Source: Escherichia phage vB_EcoM_G2248
Sequence record: MK327932.1
DNA length: 64,000 nucleotides
Reading direction: 5' to 3' (one strand)
Part shown: positions 11,181-34,760 of the stretch, piece after piece
How the letters are laid out: each line of letters begins with the position of its first letter
How positions within the stretch are numbered: the stretch's first letter is position 1
Notes under the pieces: generated by a model
Database searches by the model: none
What the model saw: the letters and a program-made list of their open reading frames with translations, nothing else
Told to the model about the DNA's origin: nothing
Program-made: the position numbers and the translations under genes

Positions 11181-11232
11181 GTGTGTTTCGTTTTGATGTG
11201 TGTAGTATAGGGGATACGTGATCCCCTGTCAA
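11181..11232 (-). promoter_or_regulatory. PeSL-like early promoter (TTGACA, palindromic spacer GGGGATCACGTATCCCC, TATACT) plus conserved leader
   Basis: Reverse complement shows hexamers 17 nt apart with the palindrome in the spacer. Confidence 0.5.
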
Positions 11233-18915: not shown

Positions 18916-19107
18916 TAGATGACTCCAATATAATCGACATTTACATTTAGGGCAATGCGGTTCTTTAATATAATACCCGTCTGTCTTTGGAACACTAACA
19001 GGAGCGGTTTTTATATTGTATTCAGTGAAACAACGAAAACAAGTTACGTTTTCTACAGACTGACGTTTCACCCAATCACCGGAATAGAGATCATTTTTAT
19101 TTGTCAT
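18913..19107 (-). CDS. small zinc-ribbon protein
   Basis: CFRC...CPKCKC; ATG 19107 with RBS GGTGG. Confidence 0.4.
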   Translation of the reverse strand: MTNKNDLYSGDWVKRQSVENVTCFRCFTEYNIKTAPVSVPKTDGYYIKEPHCPKCKCRLYWSHL

Positions 19108-19552
19108 ATTCCACCACCACAATGTTAATGTCTGGAGTGGCAATATTAATGATTTCTTCTACACATTCCCACTCAAGGCCACCGATACCGCAACCGATTT
19201 TAGGAATATAGAAAGGCTGTATAGCACCTTCAAAAACATCATTGAGAGCCTCAAATCCTTTCAGGATAGCACCATATTCAGCATTTGGACCCGGTCGGAA
19301 TTGGGTATAGAGATTAACCCCGCACCAATTATAACCATTAACTTGATGCGTCCAGACACTAAACCCACCCAGCTTTTCGACCTTACCGCGAGAAGTTTGC
19401 TTGTCAATCTCTAACGCTTGCGGGAACTCTTTCGCGATCTTCGCAGCAATACCAGCGCCCATAGTATGAAAACAATTACAACCATGAATTAAATGACCTT
19501 TTCCTTGTTTAAACAGGGCGATGAGATCGCCCTTTACAGTATCAATAATCAT
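19097..19552 (-). CDS. macro domain (ADP-ribose binding/processing) protein
   Basis: HGCNCFHTMGAGIAAKIAKEFP resembles the macro-domain N-terminal motif; RBS GAGAGG. Confidence 0.55.
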   Translation of the reverse strand: MIIDTVKGDLIALFKQGKGHLIHGCNCFHTMGAGIAAKIAKEFPQALEIDKQTSRGKVEKLGGFSVWTHQVNGYNWCGVNLYTQFRPGPNAEYGAILKGFEALNDVFEGAIQPFYIPKIGCGIGGLEWECVEEIINIATPDINIVVVEYDK

Positions 19553-21890: not shown

Positions 21891-22589
21891 CTAACCACGG
21901 GTATAGTGTTCCAGAACAACGGTCAGATGAATATATTCTAATAGATCTTTCCAAAAGTCAACATCTGGTTCTTCCGGCATACCGTTTTTCTTTGCCTCTT
22001 CACGCGCGAGTTTAACACGCTCGTAGAGATCTTTCAATTCTTCCCGCACATTATCAAAGGTTCTTTCTCCTAACTTACACGCTAAGATAGAAGAACGTCG
22101 CGCGAGCGGGAATTGTAGATCACCAGTTTGATAGATTTCAAGTAGCTGATAACCAACACGCAGAGCATGAGAAAGATCTTTCCAGTTACTGAAATACTTT
22201 TCAGATTTGGCTACCTGTTTCTTGAGATAACCAGACAAACCCCACATACCAACATGATAGAATTTATCGCGATGTGTTCGGATGTATTCCCATTCTCTGG
22301 AGGATTCGATCAACATGTTACTAGGCGCGTGCACCATATCAATAGCGCCGATATCACCTTTACATGCCAGATTGATAAACCGTTTTAGACTGAACATATT
22401 AACGTCAATATCGTCTTTGGTGTTCTTGATACCTTGACCGCTAGTGCTTTGGTCATAGTGTTCTTTCATCGATCCTAAGATAATTTCTTTCGCAGTCGGA
22501 ACAAAGATACCACGATAATCTTTATCGGAATTTTCAGTATCAAGGCCGTATAAGTGAGATCCGAAGACCATTTTAACCATTGTATGCAT
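21891..22589 (-). CDS. Pol-beta-superfamily nucleotidyltransferase
   Basis: N-terminal signature FGSHLYGLDTENSDKDYRG (GS-x9-13-D-x-D); RBS GAGGG. Confidence 0.55.
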   Translation of the reverse strand: MHTMVKMVFGSHLYGLDTENSDKDYRGIFVPTAKEIILGSMKEHYDQSTSGQGIKNTKDDIDVNMFSLKRFINLACKGDIGAIDMVHAPSNMLIESSREWEYIRTHRDKFYHVGMWGLSGYLKKQVAKSEKYFSNWKDLSHALRVGYQLLEIYQTGDLQFPLARRSSILACKLGERTFDNVREELKDLYERVKLAREEAKKNGMPEEPDVDFWKDLLEYIHLTVVLEHYTRG

Positions 22590-23780: not shown

Positions 23781-24356
23781 TTATTTTGGATCTGGGAAAT
23801 TCAATAGAGCATATTCTCCATAAAATTTCCTAGCTGCATTATCATAAGCGATTGCAGCTTCGATTTCTGTGTCATATTGTCCAAGAACATGTCTTTGTAG
23901 GTTGACCATTATACTAGCTCTCCATTTCTTACGCAAATCCTTCCTGTTACACTTACTAACACCCTTATACACACTAGAAAACTTTTTAGACTTCTTCTTT
24001 CTATTATGTTGATTTTGCGCGTCGGTTGCCTCCCTAAGATTTGGAGGATTGTTATTAGCAGGATTACCGTCAATATGATCAATTAATCTAACTTGCGTCC
24101 CATGTTCTAGAAACCAAACAACCCTATGCACGAATAGATGAACTCTAGGAAGACCGTCATCTCTACTATGCCAAAATCTAAGATGACCATCTTTATTTGT
24201 TCTGACTTTAACTAAATCGCCGTGTTTATATCTACTCCCTAATGGTCGTCCTTTGATAGCTTTACTATCGACTCTATAATATAAGATACCCTCTATATGA
24301 GCATATCTAAGTTTTATCTCGTTTTGTAGGGATTCATCCCAATATTTAAAAGCCAT
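23781..24356 (-). CDS. HNH homing endonuclease with C-terminal AP2 DNA-binding domain
   Basis: HNH motif LIDHIDGNPANNNPPNLREATDAQNQHN; AP2-like SSVYKGVS...WRASI...YDTEIEAAIAYDNAARKFYG. Confidence 0.75.
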   Translation of the reverse strand: MAFKYWDESLQNEIKLRYAHIEGILYYRVDSKAIKGRPLGSRYKHGDLVKVRTNKDGHLRFWHSRDDGLPRVHLFVHRVVWFLEHGTQVRLIDHIDGNPANNNPPNLREATDAQNQHNRKKKSKKFSSVYKGVSKCNRKDLRKKWRASIMVNLQRHVLGQYDTEIEAAIAYDNAARKFYGEYALLNFPDPK

Positions 24357-27360: not shown

Positions 27361-27415
27361 AGTTCGTGTTTCGTTTCGATGGGTGTATTATGCTATACAC
27401 CCTCTCTCGTGTCAA
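27361..27415 (-). promoter_or_regulatory. PeSL-like early promoter plus conserved leader
   Basis: TTGACA at 27415..27410, -10 CATAAT, leader ACACCCATCGAAACGAAACACGAACT. Confidence 0.55.
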
Positions 27416-28330: not shown

Positions 28331-28385
28331 AGAAAGTGTGTTTCGTTTCGATGGGTGTATTATGCTATAGGCCGGATCTGGTGTC
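28331..28385 (-). promoter_or_regulatory. PeSL-like early promoter plus conserved leader
   Basis: Near-identical to the copy at 27361..27415. Confidence 0.55.
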
Positions 28386-29310: not shown

Positions 29311-29550
29311 TCATAGATCACAGAGCCATCTTACAGCACCACATAAAGCGATCAAAAGACTAGGTATAAACGAGACTAAAACAAGACTACAAAAATCATC
29401 TAAGGTAACGCCGGAATAGCTACCTACTGTAACAACACCGATCATCAGACACAGAAAGAAAACAAATGCAATCAGAAACAAAGTATTGCTAAACAGTTTA
29501 GTGATCATTAGACACCCCACGACGATCAATTTCAAAAACTTTTTTATCAT
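29311..29550 (-). CDS. small membrane protein
   Basis: Hydrophobic; start moved to ATG 29550. Confidence 0.4.
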   Translation of the reverse strand: MIKKFLKLIVVGCLMITKLFSNTLFLIAFVFFLCLMIGVVTVGSYSGVTLDDFCSLVLVSFIPSLLIALCGAVRWLCDL

Positions 29551-29701
29551 CAACGAAGCATGTCACAACTGCATCGTTGACTTCCGCAAATTGTTGTGTT
29601 ACCCACTTAAGGTCAGAGCGAAACAATGTTCTATTAATAACAAATGTTTTACCGCTCTTATCCTTACCCATAAATTTTGCTTTAACCATATCAAATTCCA
29701 T
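29498..29701 (-). CDS. hypothetical protein
   Basis: Track ORF, ATG 29701. Confidence 0.4.
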   Translation of the reverse strand: MEFDMVKAKFMGKDKSGKTFVINRTLFRSDLKWVTQQFAEVNDAVVTCFVDDKKVFEIDRRGVSNDH

Positions 29702-29935: not shown

Positions 29936-30310
29936 TTAAGAATATTTTACTTCGTCTACAATGTCTTTCATGACATTGATTTCCATTCCGGTCAGAACAC
30001 GTTGGAACATGTGCTGCACATACGCTTTCAGGTATTCATTTGATGGCTTACTATCGAAAGTCTTTTTAGTGTAGTAGTCATCACCGAAAGCTACTGTAAT
30101 TACATTTTCGTCGTCGTTCCAAGCGATATAAGCAAATTTGCCGTTATCCCAGAAGCGAGCACTAATTGCTACTTTTGTTGAATCGAATCCTACTTCGCTG
30201 TGAGATTCAAGAACTACTTGCGTACCAGTTTCTTTATGAATGTAGTAGCGGGATACTAAGTCAAAGTTACGGGTGTAGTGACATTCGAATTTATCTTTAA
30301 ACATCATCAT
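29936..30310 (-). CDS. hypothetical protein
   Basis: Start placed at ATG 30310 behind RBS AGGAGAATCAAA; the track ORF extends further. Confidence 0.45.
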   Translation of the reverse strand: MMMFKDKFECHYTRNFDLVSRYYIHKETGTQVVLESHSEVGFDSTKVAISARFWDNGKFAYIAWNDDENVITVAFGDDYYTKKTFDSKPSNEYLKAYVQHMFQRVLTGMEINVMKDIVDEVKYS

Positions 30311-30322
30311 TTTGATTCTCCT

Positions 30323-30376
30323 AAGTGTGTTTCGTTTCGATATGTGCATTATGCTATAGTCGTTTATGGTTGTCAA
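30323..30376 (-). promoter_or_regulatory. PeSL-like early promoter plus conserved leader
   Basis: TTGACA at 30376..30371, -10 CATAAT, leader ATCGAAACGAAACACACTTAGGAGA. Confidence 0.55.
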
Positions 30377-30381
30377 CACCT

Positions 30382-30412
30382 AAAAACAAAAAACCCCGAA
30401 AAATTTTCGGGG
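30382..30412 (-). terminator. rho-independent terminator downstream of 57B
   Basis: Hairpin CCCCGAAAATTTTTCGGGG followed by a T-run on the minus strand. Confidence 0.6.
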
Positions 30413-30419
30413 TATAAAA

Positions 30420-30884
30420 TTACAGTTTGGTCGTCCACTCCAGGTCTAGATCTTCGACATACTCATGAGATCGGACAATCTCTAAATCGAACTCTAGGTC
30501 AGTGCCAAATTTACGCGCACCAACATCATAAGAAAGCGTGATATGCGGTACATATTCAGGATAATCCCACGTCGCACCTAAAGCAGTGCCGATATCGTGT
30601 CTGAATTGCATGTAGTCGCTTTCAAATGCCAGCACAAGCGCATTAGTACCGGATTGAGTTTCAAACACTTTCAGATGGCATAGAGAGCCTAAGAACTTCT
30701 CCCCTTCTTCTGGGATAAACGGAACATAGACACGAGAATATAAGATAGTGCTATGCAGTTTATCACGAGGAACGGCATTAGGCAGATCGTAGAACTCCTG
30801 CAATTTTTCAATGCGGTCTAGTGTATCCTCAGTGAATTTAACCGCCGCATATGTACCTTTAACGGATTCTCTAAACGGGGTCAT
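30420..30884 (-). CDS. 57B: 2H phosphoesterase (Acb1-like anti-CBASS nuclease, gene 57B position)
   Basis: Two H-x-T/S-x motifs (HSTILY, HITLSY); located immediately downstream of 57A as in T4; track TTG start moved to ATG 30884. Confidence 0.65.
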   Translation of the reverse strand: MTPFRESVKGTYAAVKFTEDTLDRIEKLQEFYDLPNAVPRDKLHSTILYSRVYVPFIPEEGEKFLGSLCHLKVFETQSGTNALVLAFESDYMQFRHDIGTALGATWDYPEYVPHITLSYDVGARKFGTDLEFDLEIVRSHEYVEDLDLEWTTKL

Positions 30885-30886
30885 AA

Positions 30887-31147
30887 TCAAGCCTCCGTGA
30901 TCAGTTCTACTTCCTCTTCTGCGTCTTCCGCTGCTTCGTCTTTAGGGAGAAGTGCTTTCACTTCTTCGACAATAGCATCAAGGGAAACAGTCCCGTTTTC
31001 GTCTGGCTGAATACCCAGAATGCGTACCAGTTCCATCAATACACGCTCACGATCTTTCAGTTGGCCTTCTAAGAATGCGGCCTTTTCTTGAGTGTCAAAC
31101 AGACGTACTTTCAGGACATTAATCATTTGTTCATGCTGATTGGACAT
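30887..31147 (-). CDS. 57A: tail fiber assembly chaperone gp57A
   Basis: Small acidic coiled-coil protein resembling T4 gp57A; start at ATG 31147 with RBS AGGAG. Confidence 0.75.
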   Translation of the reverse strand: MSNQHEQMINVLKVRLFDTQEKAAFLEGQLKDRERVLMELVRILGIQPDENGTVSLDAIVEEVKALLPKDEAAEDAEEEVELITEA

Positions 31148-31179: not shown

Positions 31180-31836
31180 TTAAATGTTCGCGAGAATCGC
31201 GCTTTCAAATTCTTCTAATGTACCATTATTTATGATAATGGTTTCACCGTCAATAGGCAAAATTCCTTTTTCGGTGGAGTGAGTCGATACAATACCAGTA
31301 TCACGCTGAATATGCAACACCTTAGCACCCATAGCACGCATGAGAGCAATTTCAATAGGCTGACGCACATCAACCACTACAAAATACCCTTCTTCATTTT
31401 TGCGCTTCATAAACTCATTCACGAAGAGATTACACCAATAAAGCGGATTGATCAAGTTAACCATTATATCAGTACCGAGAGTGGTTAACATGAGACGAAT
31501 AGACCAGACGTTATTATGTTTTTCGCCGATCTCATTAACGACCTTGTAAATCTCAGCCAGACGATCACAAGTAAAGGAACTACCGCCATACTTCGAATCT
31601 AGCATAAGCAGACACTGAATAAACCACTTATGCGCGGTATAGGTATCAATACCTAGATCGGCTTCTCTGTCACGCCCTAACCCGTCAAAGTCAAGATAAG
31701 TCAGACCTAAGTCTGGTTGACATTCGCATAAGATTTCTTTGATCGGTGCTGCCAGTTGATAACTGTGTCCATCAATGATTAACGCGGCAGTATCTTTTCC
31801 TACTCGCTTTTTACCACAAAGTGCAATCAATTTCAT
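31180..31836 (-). CDS. 1: deoxynucleoside monophosphate kinase
   Basis: P-loop LCGKKRVGKDT and overall resemblance to T4 gp1. Confidence 0.85.
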   Translation of the reverse strand: MKLIALCGKKRVGKDTAALIIDGHSYQLAAPIKEILCECQPDLGLTYLDFDGLGRDREADLGIDTYTAHKWFIQCLLMLDSKYGGSSFTCDRLAEIYKVVNEIGEKHNNVWSIRLMLTTLGTDIMVNLINPLYWCNLFVNEFMKRKNEEGYFVVVDVRQPIEIALMRAMGAKVLHIQRDTGIVSTHSTEKGILPIDGETIIINNGTLEEFESAILANI

Positions 31837-31851
31837 TATATAAGCCTCTTA

Positions 31852-32442
31852 TTACTTTCTAAAAGCAGGGTGCATAGCTTTAATACCTTCCACCCTCTGA
31901 CGATCCGCCGCCTGAATTGCTGGGCGAGGAACGATCAGTTGACCATCACGTTCAATGCTCATTGTTTTAAAGGGAAGAATTGCAGTACACACCAGAGATT
32001 CATGCATATCATCGGTGTATGTTAACTCAAGTTCCCCCAATTGTGAACACCAACAACCATAAAAGTTAAAAGTGCACACAATGTTACGTCGTTCGTTGTC
32101 CATCATGTGAACTTGAACGGCTTCCGGCATTGAATCCTTCCACGCGGTGGAGTTACCGTTATTGTAGTCTACTATAGAAAGCATCCATGTGTAAAGGTTT
32201 AGATAGCTTTCCAAATGCTCATCGACAATAAACCGGACTACCAACGGGTCAAACTCCACATGACTAGACGGATAATCAGCGACCGCCAAACCATATTGAC
32301 CAGCAACTTGCTTAGTCGGTGGAATGGTTATAGCCGGAAGTGTAACACCTTGAGCATTTAAAGTAAAGCCTTTTGTTAGTTGTCCATCTGGAATATTGAT
32401 CTGCCAGTTGCTGGGGTTAGCATAGTTAAAGAGATTAGACAT
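31852..32442 (-). CDS. 3: tail completion/sheath stabilizer protein gp3 (assigned by position)
   Basis: 196-aa ORF upstream of gene 1, the T4 position of gene 3; RBS GAGGAA. Confidence 0.5.
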   Translation of the reverse strand: MSNLFNYANPSNWQINIPDGQLTKGFTLNAQGVTLPAITIPPTKQVAGQYGLAVADYPSSHVEFDPLVVRFIVDEHLESYLNLYTWMLSIVDYNNGNSTAWKDSMPEAVQVHMMDNERRNIVCTFNFYGCWCSQLGELELTYTDDMHESLVCTAILPFKTMSIERDGQLIVPRPAIQAADRQRVEGIKAMHPAFRK

Positions 32443-32886: not shown

Positions 32887-32919
32887 TAAAAAAGCCCGTC
32901 AATGACGGGCTTAATTTTT
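32886..32919. terminator. bidirectional rho-independent terminator
   Basis: Hairpin GCCCGTCAATGACGGGC flanked by an A-run and a T-run. Confidence 0.65.
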
Positions 32920-33946
32920 AATATGTATCAGCTAATTTAATTATGTTATCAAGTTCCGTTATTGGTAAAGTTTCTGTGTATCCATCTTTCAACATAGATT
33001 TATCAACAACGCCACATTGATAAGTTCTCTTTATTTCCTTTTCAAGTTCCCACGGAATCCAGCCATCAACACTTTGTTTGACGTAAACAAGTTTATGAAC
33101 AAACTTAGATTTCTGCATATGTTGTTTCATTCTGGTTTCCGGTAATTCATTGGTTACACCAAACTTTATAAATTTATCATCTAACGTCTGGATATAAAAA
33201 TATCCTATCTCAGATGGACGATAGCCAGAAGAACTACATTTCGGACACCCTTTAGCATTTCTGCTGAACGTACAATATCTTACGGAAAATTCGGCGTCAT
33301 GTTTTGTACATTTAAGTTTTATCCATGAATTTGCAGTACCTATCCATTCACCATCGACACCTATATATTCATACCCTAACTTTTTACATTTATCTTCTAT
33401 TCTAGATAGTGCATCTTCTACGGGAACGACATATTCCGTCTTAAATTGTTCAGCCGCACATTTCTTACAACCACATGTACCATGATTTTTAAAATCAAAG
33501 AACTTTGTATTCTTCCAAATATGGTCATGTTTCTTGCATCTAAGAATAATCTTAGTAATTTGTGATTTCCAGCCACCAACAAATCCCAAAAATTCATAAT
33601 CAAGATCTTTACATTTTTCTTCAATGAATTTGGTTGCTTCCTCTTCTGTCATAACTCCCCTACATTGAGGACAACCAACAATAACCTTTTTAGCATAGAA
33701 ACTATTACTGGAAACATCATAGACAGATCCATGCTTATTGCATTGGATAACAGATCTAGTCAATTTTCCTTTCCATTCTCCAGAAAATCCTAAGAATGTA
33801 TGGTCGACAAGTTTACACCTTTCAATAACTTTATCCGCAAATTCTCTAGGAGATTTTGTTACTTTGTTTACTCTGTATTCTATTTCTTCCGGTTGACGAA
33901 GATAATAAACGTGGGGATTGCTCCCCACGGAATTAATATTAAGCAT
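32918..33946 (-). CDS. putative GIY-YIG-like nuclease with three N-terminal zinc-ribbon repeats (candidate homing endonuclease)
   Basis: Three ~45-aa repeats each ending in a CxxC-type motif (CPQCRG, CGCKKC, CPKCSS); C-terminal GYFYIQTL...FIKFGVT...R...H; ATG 33946 with RBS AAGGAAGG. Confidence 0.4.
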   Translation of the reverse strand: MLNINSVGSNPHVYYLRQPEEIEYRVNKVTKSPREFADKVIERCKLVDHTFLGFSGEWKGKLTRSVIQCNKHGSVYDVSSNSFYAKKVIVGCPQCRGVMTEEEATKFIEEKCKDLDYEFLGFVGGWKSQITKIILRCKKHDHIWKNTKFFDFKNHGTCGCKKCAAEQFKTEYVVPVEDALSRIEDKCKKLGYEYIGVDGEWIGTANSWIKLKCTKHDAEFSVRYCTFSRNAKGCPKCSSSGYRPSEIGYFYIQTLDDKFIKFGVTNELPETRMKQHMQKSKFVHKLVYVKQSVDGWIPWELEKEIKRTYQCGVVDKSMLKDGYTETLPITELDNIIKLADTY

Positions 33947-34760
33947 CCTTCCACACCTTCCTTGCATCATAGTTTTTACCTTTAGAAACAAATTTATATG
34001 TGTTAAGGTAGATAATATTGCTCCAGTCTTTCGGGCTAATCTCAACAAGTTTTGTTTTAATGTGTCCCGGTAGATATGCTTTGATCATGTGATCACTTCC
34101 ACGCATACCTTTTACATCGCTCCATTTGATTTTTAAGCGTGTTTTATTGCTCAAGGTAGGAGTAGATGCATATTGCTTTAAAAGTGCCTCTAAAAACTGC
34201 TGACGGGCTTTAGGAGTTACATAGTGTAAGTTAAGACCCAGCATCACAGTATTACCCGCCTTTGTCTTAGAATCACCCAGACAAATGATCAGCGGGAAAA
34301 CATCCCAATATGGCAAAGTGTCTTTATACTTAGCATCATACATAAAGGTATAGATTCGCCCTACTTGCGGTTTTACAATCTGGTGTCCCTTTATTCCAGC
34401 TTTTATTGTTTTAGTAAACCACTCCTGTGATTTTTCTTTAGGACGACTCTTTGATACAGCACGCATAGACGCACGAAAATCATTAATCATCATCATTGCG
34501 CGTTGCTGCTTATTGAGACCCTTTGCGCCTTTCCCTTTTAGTTTTTCAACTTCTATTGCTGTTTTAATTTCGCTGGCATAACGAGACATACTTTTAGTGA
34601 AAGTCGCATAGGCTATTCCCTTAGAATCTGCAAATGCTTTAGCTGTCATGCCTTTGGCTTTTGCTTTCGCAAATTCTACACCCAATTCGACCCACTGTTT
34701 AGACTTTCTTTTTTGGGGAGACGGCTTTTCGTCTTCTGTGATTATTTCAAATACGCTCAT
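33939..34760 (-). CDS. 2: DNA end protector protein gp2
   Basis: 273-aa basic protein at the T4 gene 2 position upstream of gene 4. Confidence 0.65.
   Translation of the reverse strand: MSVFEIITEDEKPSPQKRKSKQWVELGVEFAKAKAKGMTAKAFADSKGIAYATFTKSMSRYASEIKTAIEVEKLKGKGAKGLNKQQRAMMMINDFRASMRAVSKSRPKEKSQEWFTKTIKAGIKGHQIVKPQVGRIYTFMYDAKYKDTLPYWDVFPLIICLGDSKTKAGNTVMLGLNLHYVTPKARQQFLEALLKQYASTPTLSNKTRLKIKWSDVKGMRGSDHMIKAYLPGHIKTKLVEISPKDWSNIIYLNTYKFVSKGKNYDARKVWKDA

Follow-up and report, generated by a model that had tools for sequence, protein, structure and literature searches.

The gene of 154 codons that follows gene 57A in Escherichia phage vB_EcoM_G2248 (sequence record MK327932.1) is very probably the Krischvirus (RB49/JSE/phi1-type coliphage) orthologue of T4 57B/acb1, and is called acb1 here. 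The assignment draws on homology, residue conservation, synteny, purifying-selection signals, and gene-boundary signals; the gene lies in one stretch of 64,000 nucleotides ("the window"). An earlier reading, made from the letters of the window without database searches (the sequence-only reading), had proposed an Acb1-like 2H phosphoesterase at exactly the coordinates of this coding sequence, with its strand (minus) left unstated. That proposal is borne out by matches to Pfam PF23474, to FBB1 Acb1, and to T4 Acb1.

The gene was known and deposited before, its genus is well sampled, and its family has both a curated Pfam model and a crystal structure. Its identification is of little importance beyond correct annotation: the deposited labels of Krischvirus 57B are "hypothetical protein", "gp57B conserved hypothetical protein", and "RNA ligase", not Acb1, and many Krischvirus records carry the first or the last of these. 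A literature search found no paper naming Acb1 together with RB49 or Krischvirus. (The RB49-like phage vB_EcoM-G2494 was among the 57 phages of a 2022 lysate screen.)

Family assignment and functional residues

The Acb1 model PF23474 matches the acb1 product with 174.4 bits (cut-off 27; E = 1.5e-51), aligning protein residues 9-152 with profile positions 1-143 of 144. In the PDB, the only relative returned by a sequence search is Acb1 of Erwinia phage FBB1 (7T26/7T27) (E = 1.8e-43, residues 10-153), and BLASTP against T4 57B (NP_049750.1) gave 47% identity over 154 aa, end to end (E = 3e-47). Judged by these homology statistics, the match lies far beyond chance. The NCBIfam scan found no family matching the acb1 product, which indicates that the NCBI naming models do not cover Acb1.

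A single-sequence AlphaFold2 prediction was unusable (mean pLDDT 37.5, pTM 0.36), which leaves sequence homology to a protein of solved structure as the basis for the fold. Homology to FBB1 Acb1, extending over 144 of the 154 residues, strongly implies a compact 2H fold.

The translation reads MTPFRESVKGTYAAVKF...HSTILY...HITLSY...EYVEDLDLEWTTKL. Both motifs that the sequence-only reading had picked out are present, at residues 44-49 and 114-119 (Table 1). By itself, the H-x-[TS]-x motif pair is moderately specific: a loose version, with the two motifs 50-100 residues apart, occurs in three of the 75 window ORFs of at least 100 aa, and a version with hydrophobic neighbours occurs in the acb1 ORF only.

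Hobbs et al. 2022 (PMC9117128) named the residues through which Acb1 works: H44, T46, H113, and T115, which form the catalytic HxT/HxT tetrad; the base-stacking aromatics Y12, W74, F107, and W147; E141, which reads the adenine N6; and a C-terminal lid, residues 145-152. The lid is needed for activity (bioRxiv 10.1101/2025.08.21.671373). These positions were located in an alignment (A1) of eight sequences from six Straboviridae lineages: the acb1 product and its counterparts from G2494, T4, FBB1, Mokit, K571, AsFcp_4, and 05F.

In the acb1 product, each of these nine residues is either retained or exchanged conservatively. Six fall in invariant columns of A1: Y12, H44, and T46, numbered as in T4, together with H114 (T4 H113), T116 (T4 T115), and E144 (T4 E141), the last lying just upstream of the lid segment. 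W150 (T4 W147) occupies a column that is W in seven of the eight sequences. The two replacements are F74 for T4 W74 and Y108 for T4 F107, and in both FBB1 has the same residue as the acb1 product. A one-residue insertion after G79 moves the second histidine from H113 of T4 to H114. The lid, DLDLEWTTKL, aligns gap-free with FBB1 ELDLEWSDK and T4 PLKLDWADDLK.

Alignment to T4 Acb1 was the check that the sequence-only reading had proposed for itself, with misaligned catalytic histidines as the result that would count against it. H44/T46 and H114/T116 are in register with T4 H44/T46 and H113/T115, and with the histidines so aligned the Acb1 interpretation stands.

Table 1. Features in and around acb1, in gene order along the minus strand; positions are those of the 64,000-nucleotide window, and the coordinates of the acb1 CDS include its TAA stop codon.
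Feature	Position	Strand	Basis
Gene 3, tail completion / sheath stabiliser, first of block	31852..32442	-	PHROG 45, 4.9e-43; JSE annotation
Gene 1, dNMP kinase	31180..31836	-	Pfam DNMK, E = 3.5e-68; JSE annotation
Gene 57A homologue, tail-fibre assembly chaperone, immediately 5' of acb1	30887..31147	-	Pfam GP57, PHROG 1002, JSE annotation
Shine-Dalgarno GGAGG, 7 nt 5' of the acb1 ATG, within the last codons of 57A	30892..30896	-	Read from sequence
acb1 (gene 57B) CDS, 154 aa	30420..30884	-	ORF; Pfam PF23474; PDB 7T26/7T27; T4 57B identity; JSE identity
First 2H motif HSTILY, residues 44-49 (H44, T46)	30738..30755	-	Translation; = T4 Acb1 H44/T46
Second 2H motif HITLSY, residues 114-119 (H114, T116)	30528..30545	-	Translation; = T4 Acb1 H113/T115
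C-terminal lid, residues 145-154 (DLDLEWTTKL), including W150 (T4 W147)	30423..30452	-	Alignment A1
Intrinsic-terminator-like hairpin (9-bp stem, 5 G-C pairs, 3-nt loop), then TTTTTGTTTT	30393..30413	-	Promoter/terminator scan
Near-consensus sigma-70 promoter TTGACA-17-CATAAT, serving the gene after acb1	30376-30348	-	Promoter/terminator scan
124-aa ORF, immediately downstream of acb1	29936-30310	-	PHROG 15253 (unknown function); own promoter 30376-30348 (-)
Dmd homologue, 0.7 kb downstream of acb1	29498-29701	-	Pfam Dmd PF17587, E = 2e-15
Nucleotidyltransferase (nrdC.11), 7.8 kb from acb1	21891-22589	-	Pfam RlaP; T4 nrdC.11 orthologue
Macro-domain protein, 10.9 kb from acb1	19097-19552	-	Pfam Macro, 29.4 bits
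26-nt element, four copies	30327-30352, 28338-28363, 27366-27391, 11183-11208	all -	Sequence recurrence

Gene order, boundaries, and Krischvirus relatives

The acb1 gene is the last of four co-oriented genes, 3-1-57A-57B. The same order, with the same orientation, is found in T4, JSE, Vibrio phage K571, Acinetobacter phage Mokit, Klebsiella phage 05F, and Aeromonas phage AsFcp_4. The sequence-only reading had placed acb1 directly downstream of 57A, as in T4, and the identity of that neighbour is confirmed: the 57A product scores 27.5 bits against Pfam GP57 (cut-off 27) and matches PHROG 1002, "tail fiber chaperone", at 2e-26. A tblastn search with the acb1 product matched 1475 phage records, and in 1459 of them the match takes in 80% of the query or more. 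Among the Straboviridae, acb1 is a widely conserved accessory gene.

Two departures from this common pattern may be recorded. The 57B homologue of the Slopekvirus Klebsiella phage vB_KpnM_05F is 207 aa long, with K replacing the lid W and a C-terminal extension of about 55 residues; it possibly represents a form of Acb1 whose lid differs. In the window, genes of the homing-endonuclease type break up the conserved layout: a 376-aa ORF at 32918-34048 (minus strand), between gene 3 and gene 2, annotated "endonuclease" in JSE; and an HNH_3/AP2-domain ORF at 23781-24356 (minus strand), further downstream, past nrdC.11 and vs.6.

Reading on the minus strand, the ATG of acb1 begins at 30884, 2 nt past the TGA stop of 57A, and its TAA stop occupies 30420-30422. 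This close spacing, along with a GGAGG inside the end of 57A, suggests that acb1 and 57A are translationally coupled. The terminator-like hairpin starts 6 nt past the acb1 stop codon and ends the 3-1-57A-57B block; a terminator is annotated at the equivalent place after acb1 in phage vB_EcoM_G2494. With this hairpin after the stop and the promoter of the next gene just beyond, acb1 forms the end of a transcription unit. A search for the T4 late-promoter consensus (TATAAATA) gave seven matches in the window against 6.25 expected, none of them near the acb1 block, and is uninformative on the timing of acb1 expression.

The surrounding DNA belongs to a genome of Krischvirus, the RB49/JSE/phi1-type T4-like coliphages. 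A 24-kb stretch of the window is 96.6-97.2% identical to FL38, ECD7, and phi1. A 2.7-kb stretch around acb1 matches 58 deposited phage records at 95-99.7% identity, the best being KFS-EC at 99.7%; the 25 Krischvirus matches listed span 98.6-99.7%, and none of the 58 falls below 95%.

The proteins of JSE (gp57B, YP_002922201.1) and of at least two further deposited phages, vB_EcoM_Skers and vB_Eco_SAP, are identical to the acb1 product, and that of vB_EcoM_G2494 is one residue apart (D129N). The JSE gene differs at eight synonymous codons and at no non-synonymous ones, which at the sequence level reads as a small but clean signal of purifying selection. Across Krischvirus (JSE, RB49, phi1, KFS-EC, Skers, SAP, and G2494), 57B shows no substantive difference and is the same gene.

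Neighbouring counter-defence candidates

The sequence-only reading went on to link acb1 with a macro-domain protein and a nucleotidyltransferase as a "counter-defense toolkit". Both genes exist (Table 1), and a homologue of dmd, which that reading left out, lies closer to acb1 than either. T4 Dmd is an antitoxin mimic that neutralises the toxins RnlA and LsoA. T4 Tk.4, which a 2025 preprint names AdfM, an anti-DarTG2 factor, has its orthologue here in the macro-domain protein (45% identity, E = 8e-40), whose domain also resembles that of the antitoxin DarG. The nrdC.11-type nucleotidyltransferase has 232 aa against 336 in T4, leaving about 100 T4 residues with no counterpart, and its tblastn match consists of two separate, slightly overlapping pieces; no evidence was found for an anti-defence role of nrdC.11.

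The macro-domain, nrdC.11, and dmd genes are scattered over 11 kb of an early region of the ordinary T4 type, among some 35 small early ORFs, and are inherited from the common T4-type layout. The toolkit proposal is partly supported: both named genes exist, one of them the tk.4/AdfM orthologue, and dmd lies 0.7 kb away. The named genes lie at distances of 10.9 and 7.8 kb, and a dedicated assembly around acb1 is unsupported. To call the region "enriched in counter-defence genes" is fair.

Other T4 genes, a second anti-CBASS gene (acb2) among them, were sought in the window by tblastn. Queries with T4 Vs.4/Acb2, ipI, vs.3, vs.5, trna.2, and trna.4 gave no match at E up to 1, and trna.3 gave a chance-level match only (E = 0.77). 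Acb2 could be missing, could have diverged too far to be matched, or could be encoded in another part of the genome.

Next after acb1 comes a gene for a 124-aa protein, at the place that the anti-restriction gene ipI holds in T4. Its product has no Pfam, NCBIfam, or credible PDB match. Within the phage collection its matches are confined to the 58 Krischvirus records, with identities of 95-100%. A near-consensus sigma-70 promoter of its own serves the gene, and terminator-like hairpins stand on both sides. This ORF is a candidate lineage-specific anti-defence or host-takeover gene. Because both dmd and a Krischvirus-only early gene are found there, the neighbourhood of acb1 is a reasonable place to search for more anti-defence genes.

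A 26-nt element (ATAATnCACnTATCGAAACGAAACAC) occurs four times in the window, always on the minus strand, against zero occurrences expected by chance. In sigma-70-type promoters the element covers the -10 hexamer together with some 20 of the first transcribed bases, and it looks like a conserved early-promoter-plus-leader cassette. (It also gives rise to spurious look-alike peptides, ...YSIIHPSKRNT..., in ORF lists.)

Proposed activity and comparison with known systems

Homology to characterised Acb1 proteins suggests how the acb1 product would act. Its U-shaped pocket would bind 3'-5'-linked cyclic di- or trinucleotides with at least one adenosine: 3'3'-cGAMP, cUA, cAAA, and cAAG are the proposed ligands. 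Y12, F74, Y108, and W150 would stack on the bases, E144 would read the adenine N6, and the C-terminal lid would shut over the ligand. The tetrad formed by H44-x-T46 and H114-x-T116 would then carry out metal-independent acid-base catalysis: the enzyme would strain the adenosine, so that its 2'-OH could attack the adjacent 3'-5' phosphodiester, and a 2',3'-cyclic phosphate intermediate would be converted to a linear 3'-phosphate product. With the CBASS second messenger destroyed, the effectors (Cap4/Cap5 nucleases, CapV phospholipase, and others) would stay inactive, and the infected cell would not commit suicide before phage replication ends. We infer this substrate range, this chemistry, and the anti-CBASS phenotype from that likeness; activity on 3'3'-cGAMP or cA3 in particular is predicted from homology.

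For T4 Acb1 the phenotype is documented. T4 lacking acb1 has a replication defect of more than 300-fold on CBASS hosts and pays no cost on hosts lacking CBASS; a HIDEN-SEQ transposon screen found acb1 conditionally essential on a CBASS host; and Acb1 activity appears about 15 min into infection.

Could the acb1 product instead be a generic 2H enzyme of RNA metabolism, a LigT-type 2'-5' RNA ligase or 2',3'-cyclic phosphodiesterase engaged in phage tRNA or RNA repair? The legacy label "RNA ligase", carried by the family in both PHROG 755 and RefSeq, points that way, as do sub-threshold Pfam matches to 2_5_RNA_ligase2 (PF13563, 19.4 bits, cut-off 27) and LigT_PEase (PF02834, 14.1 bits, cut-off 23.3). 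However, neither match reaches its curated cut-off, and both are limited to the surroundings of the second motif, whereas the Acb1 model matches over the full length with 174 bits. The residues for cyclic-oligonucleotide binding are kept, and the T4 member of the family was itself found by activity-guided fractionation as a cGAMP-degrading enzyme, an activity that is lost on deletion of the gene. With both scores under their gathering cut-offs the LigT or "RNA ligase" identity was rejected, and a role in RNA metabolism is highly improbable.

Somewhat less remote, though still improbable, is that the protein belongs to the Acb1 family and has a substrate range unlike that of T4 Acb1; 2'3'-c-di-AMP or cA3, for instance, might be spared and Panoptes-type guards left untriggered. 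In another form of altered range, cyclic trinucleotides of type III CRISPR or type II Panoptes might be preferred over cGAMP. Identity to T4 Acb1 is, after all, only 47%, and the two replaced aromatics, F74 and Y108, are base-stacking positions. Close relatives within the same structural group differ in cleavage of 2'3'-c-di-AMP, with specificity set by the core rather than the lid (10.1101/2025.08.21.671373); 2H PDE-9, for one, is T4 Acb1-like in sequence yet discriminates against 2'3'-c-di-AMP. Panoptes, moreover, selects phages to lose or retune acb1. Against a retuned range, the equivalents of F74 and Y108 are also present in FBB1 Acb1, one of whose crystal structures holds bound 3'3'-cGAMP (7T27; PMC9117128); E144 and W150 are conserved; and all nine of the additional Acb1 homologues tested cleaved both 3'3'-cGAMP and cAAA (PMC9117128). 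An orthologue of T4 Acb1 with the family's usual range is therefore the preferred reading.

Substrate breadth has a cost, in that Panoptes-type guard systems can sense phages that carry Acb1; for type I Panoptes the in-phage evidence is mixed. If the gene is relabelled acb1, RB49/JSE-like therapeutic and biocontrol phages are predicted to resist CBASS systems that signal through cGAMP, cUA, or cAAA, and possibly to be sensitive to Panoptes-type guards that sense nucleotide depletion. Were the range retuned, RB49-like phages would defeat CBASS without tripping Panoptes-type decoy-nucleotide guards.

Set beside known systems, the acb1 product shares with the LigT/2H superfamily (PF02834, PF13563) the two H-x-T/S-x motifs and probably the 2H fold, as homology to 7T26 implies. 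It differs in its probably compact build, in a C-terminal lid, and in aromatic residues suited to stacking on the bases of cyclic oligonucleotides.

Within the Acb1 family, the protein of FBB1 (7T26, apo; 7T27, with 3'3'-cGAMP) has 54% identity in A1. The two proteins have in common the HxT/HxT tetrad, F74, Y at the equivalent of F107, the E and W of the C-terminal lid region, and a length class of about 150 aa. The acb1 product has a 121-135 loop (GARKFGTDLEFDLEI) that is longer by two residues, the sole gap between them. The host genus is Erwinia for FBB1 and Escherichia here, and FBB1 Acb1 has a solved structure where the acb1 product is known from its sequence.

T4 Acb1, the founding member of the family, is likewise encoded directly after 57A, within a 3-1-57A-57B block. 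The downstream neighbour differs: ipI (anti-GmrSD) in T4, and the Krischvirus-restricted 124-aa ORF here. Within the proteins, W74 and F107 of T4 give way to F74 and Y108, and the catalytic and adenine-reading residues are identical.
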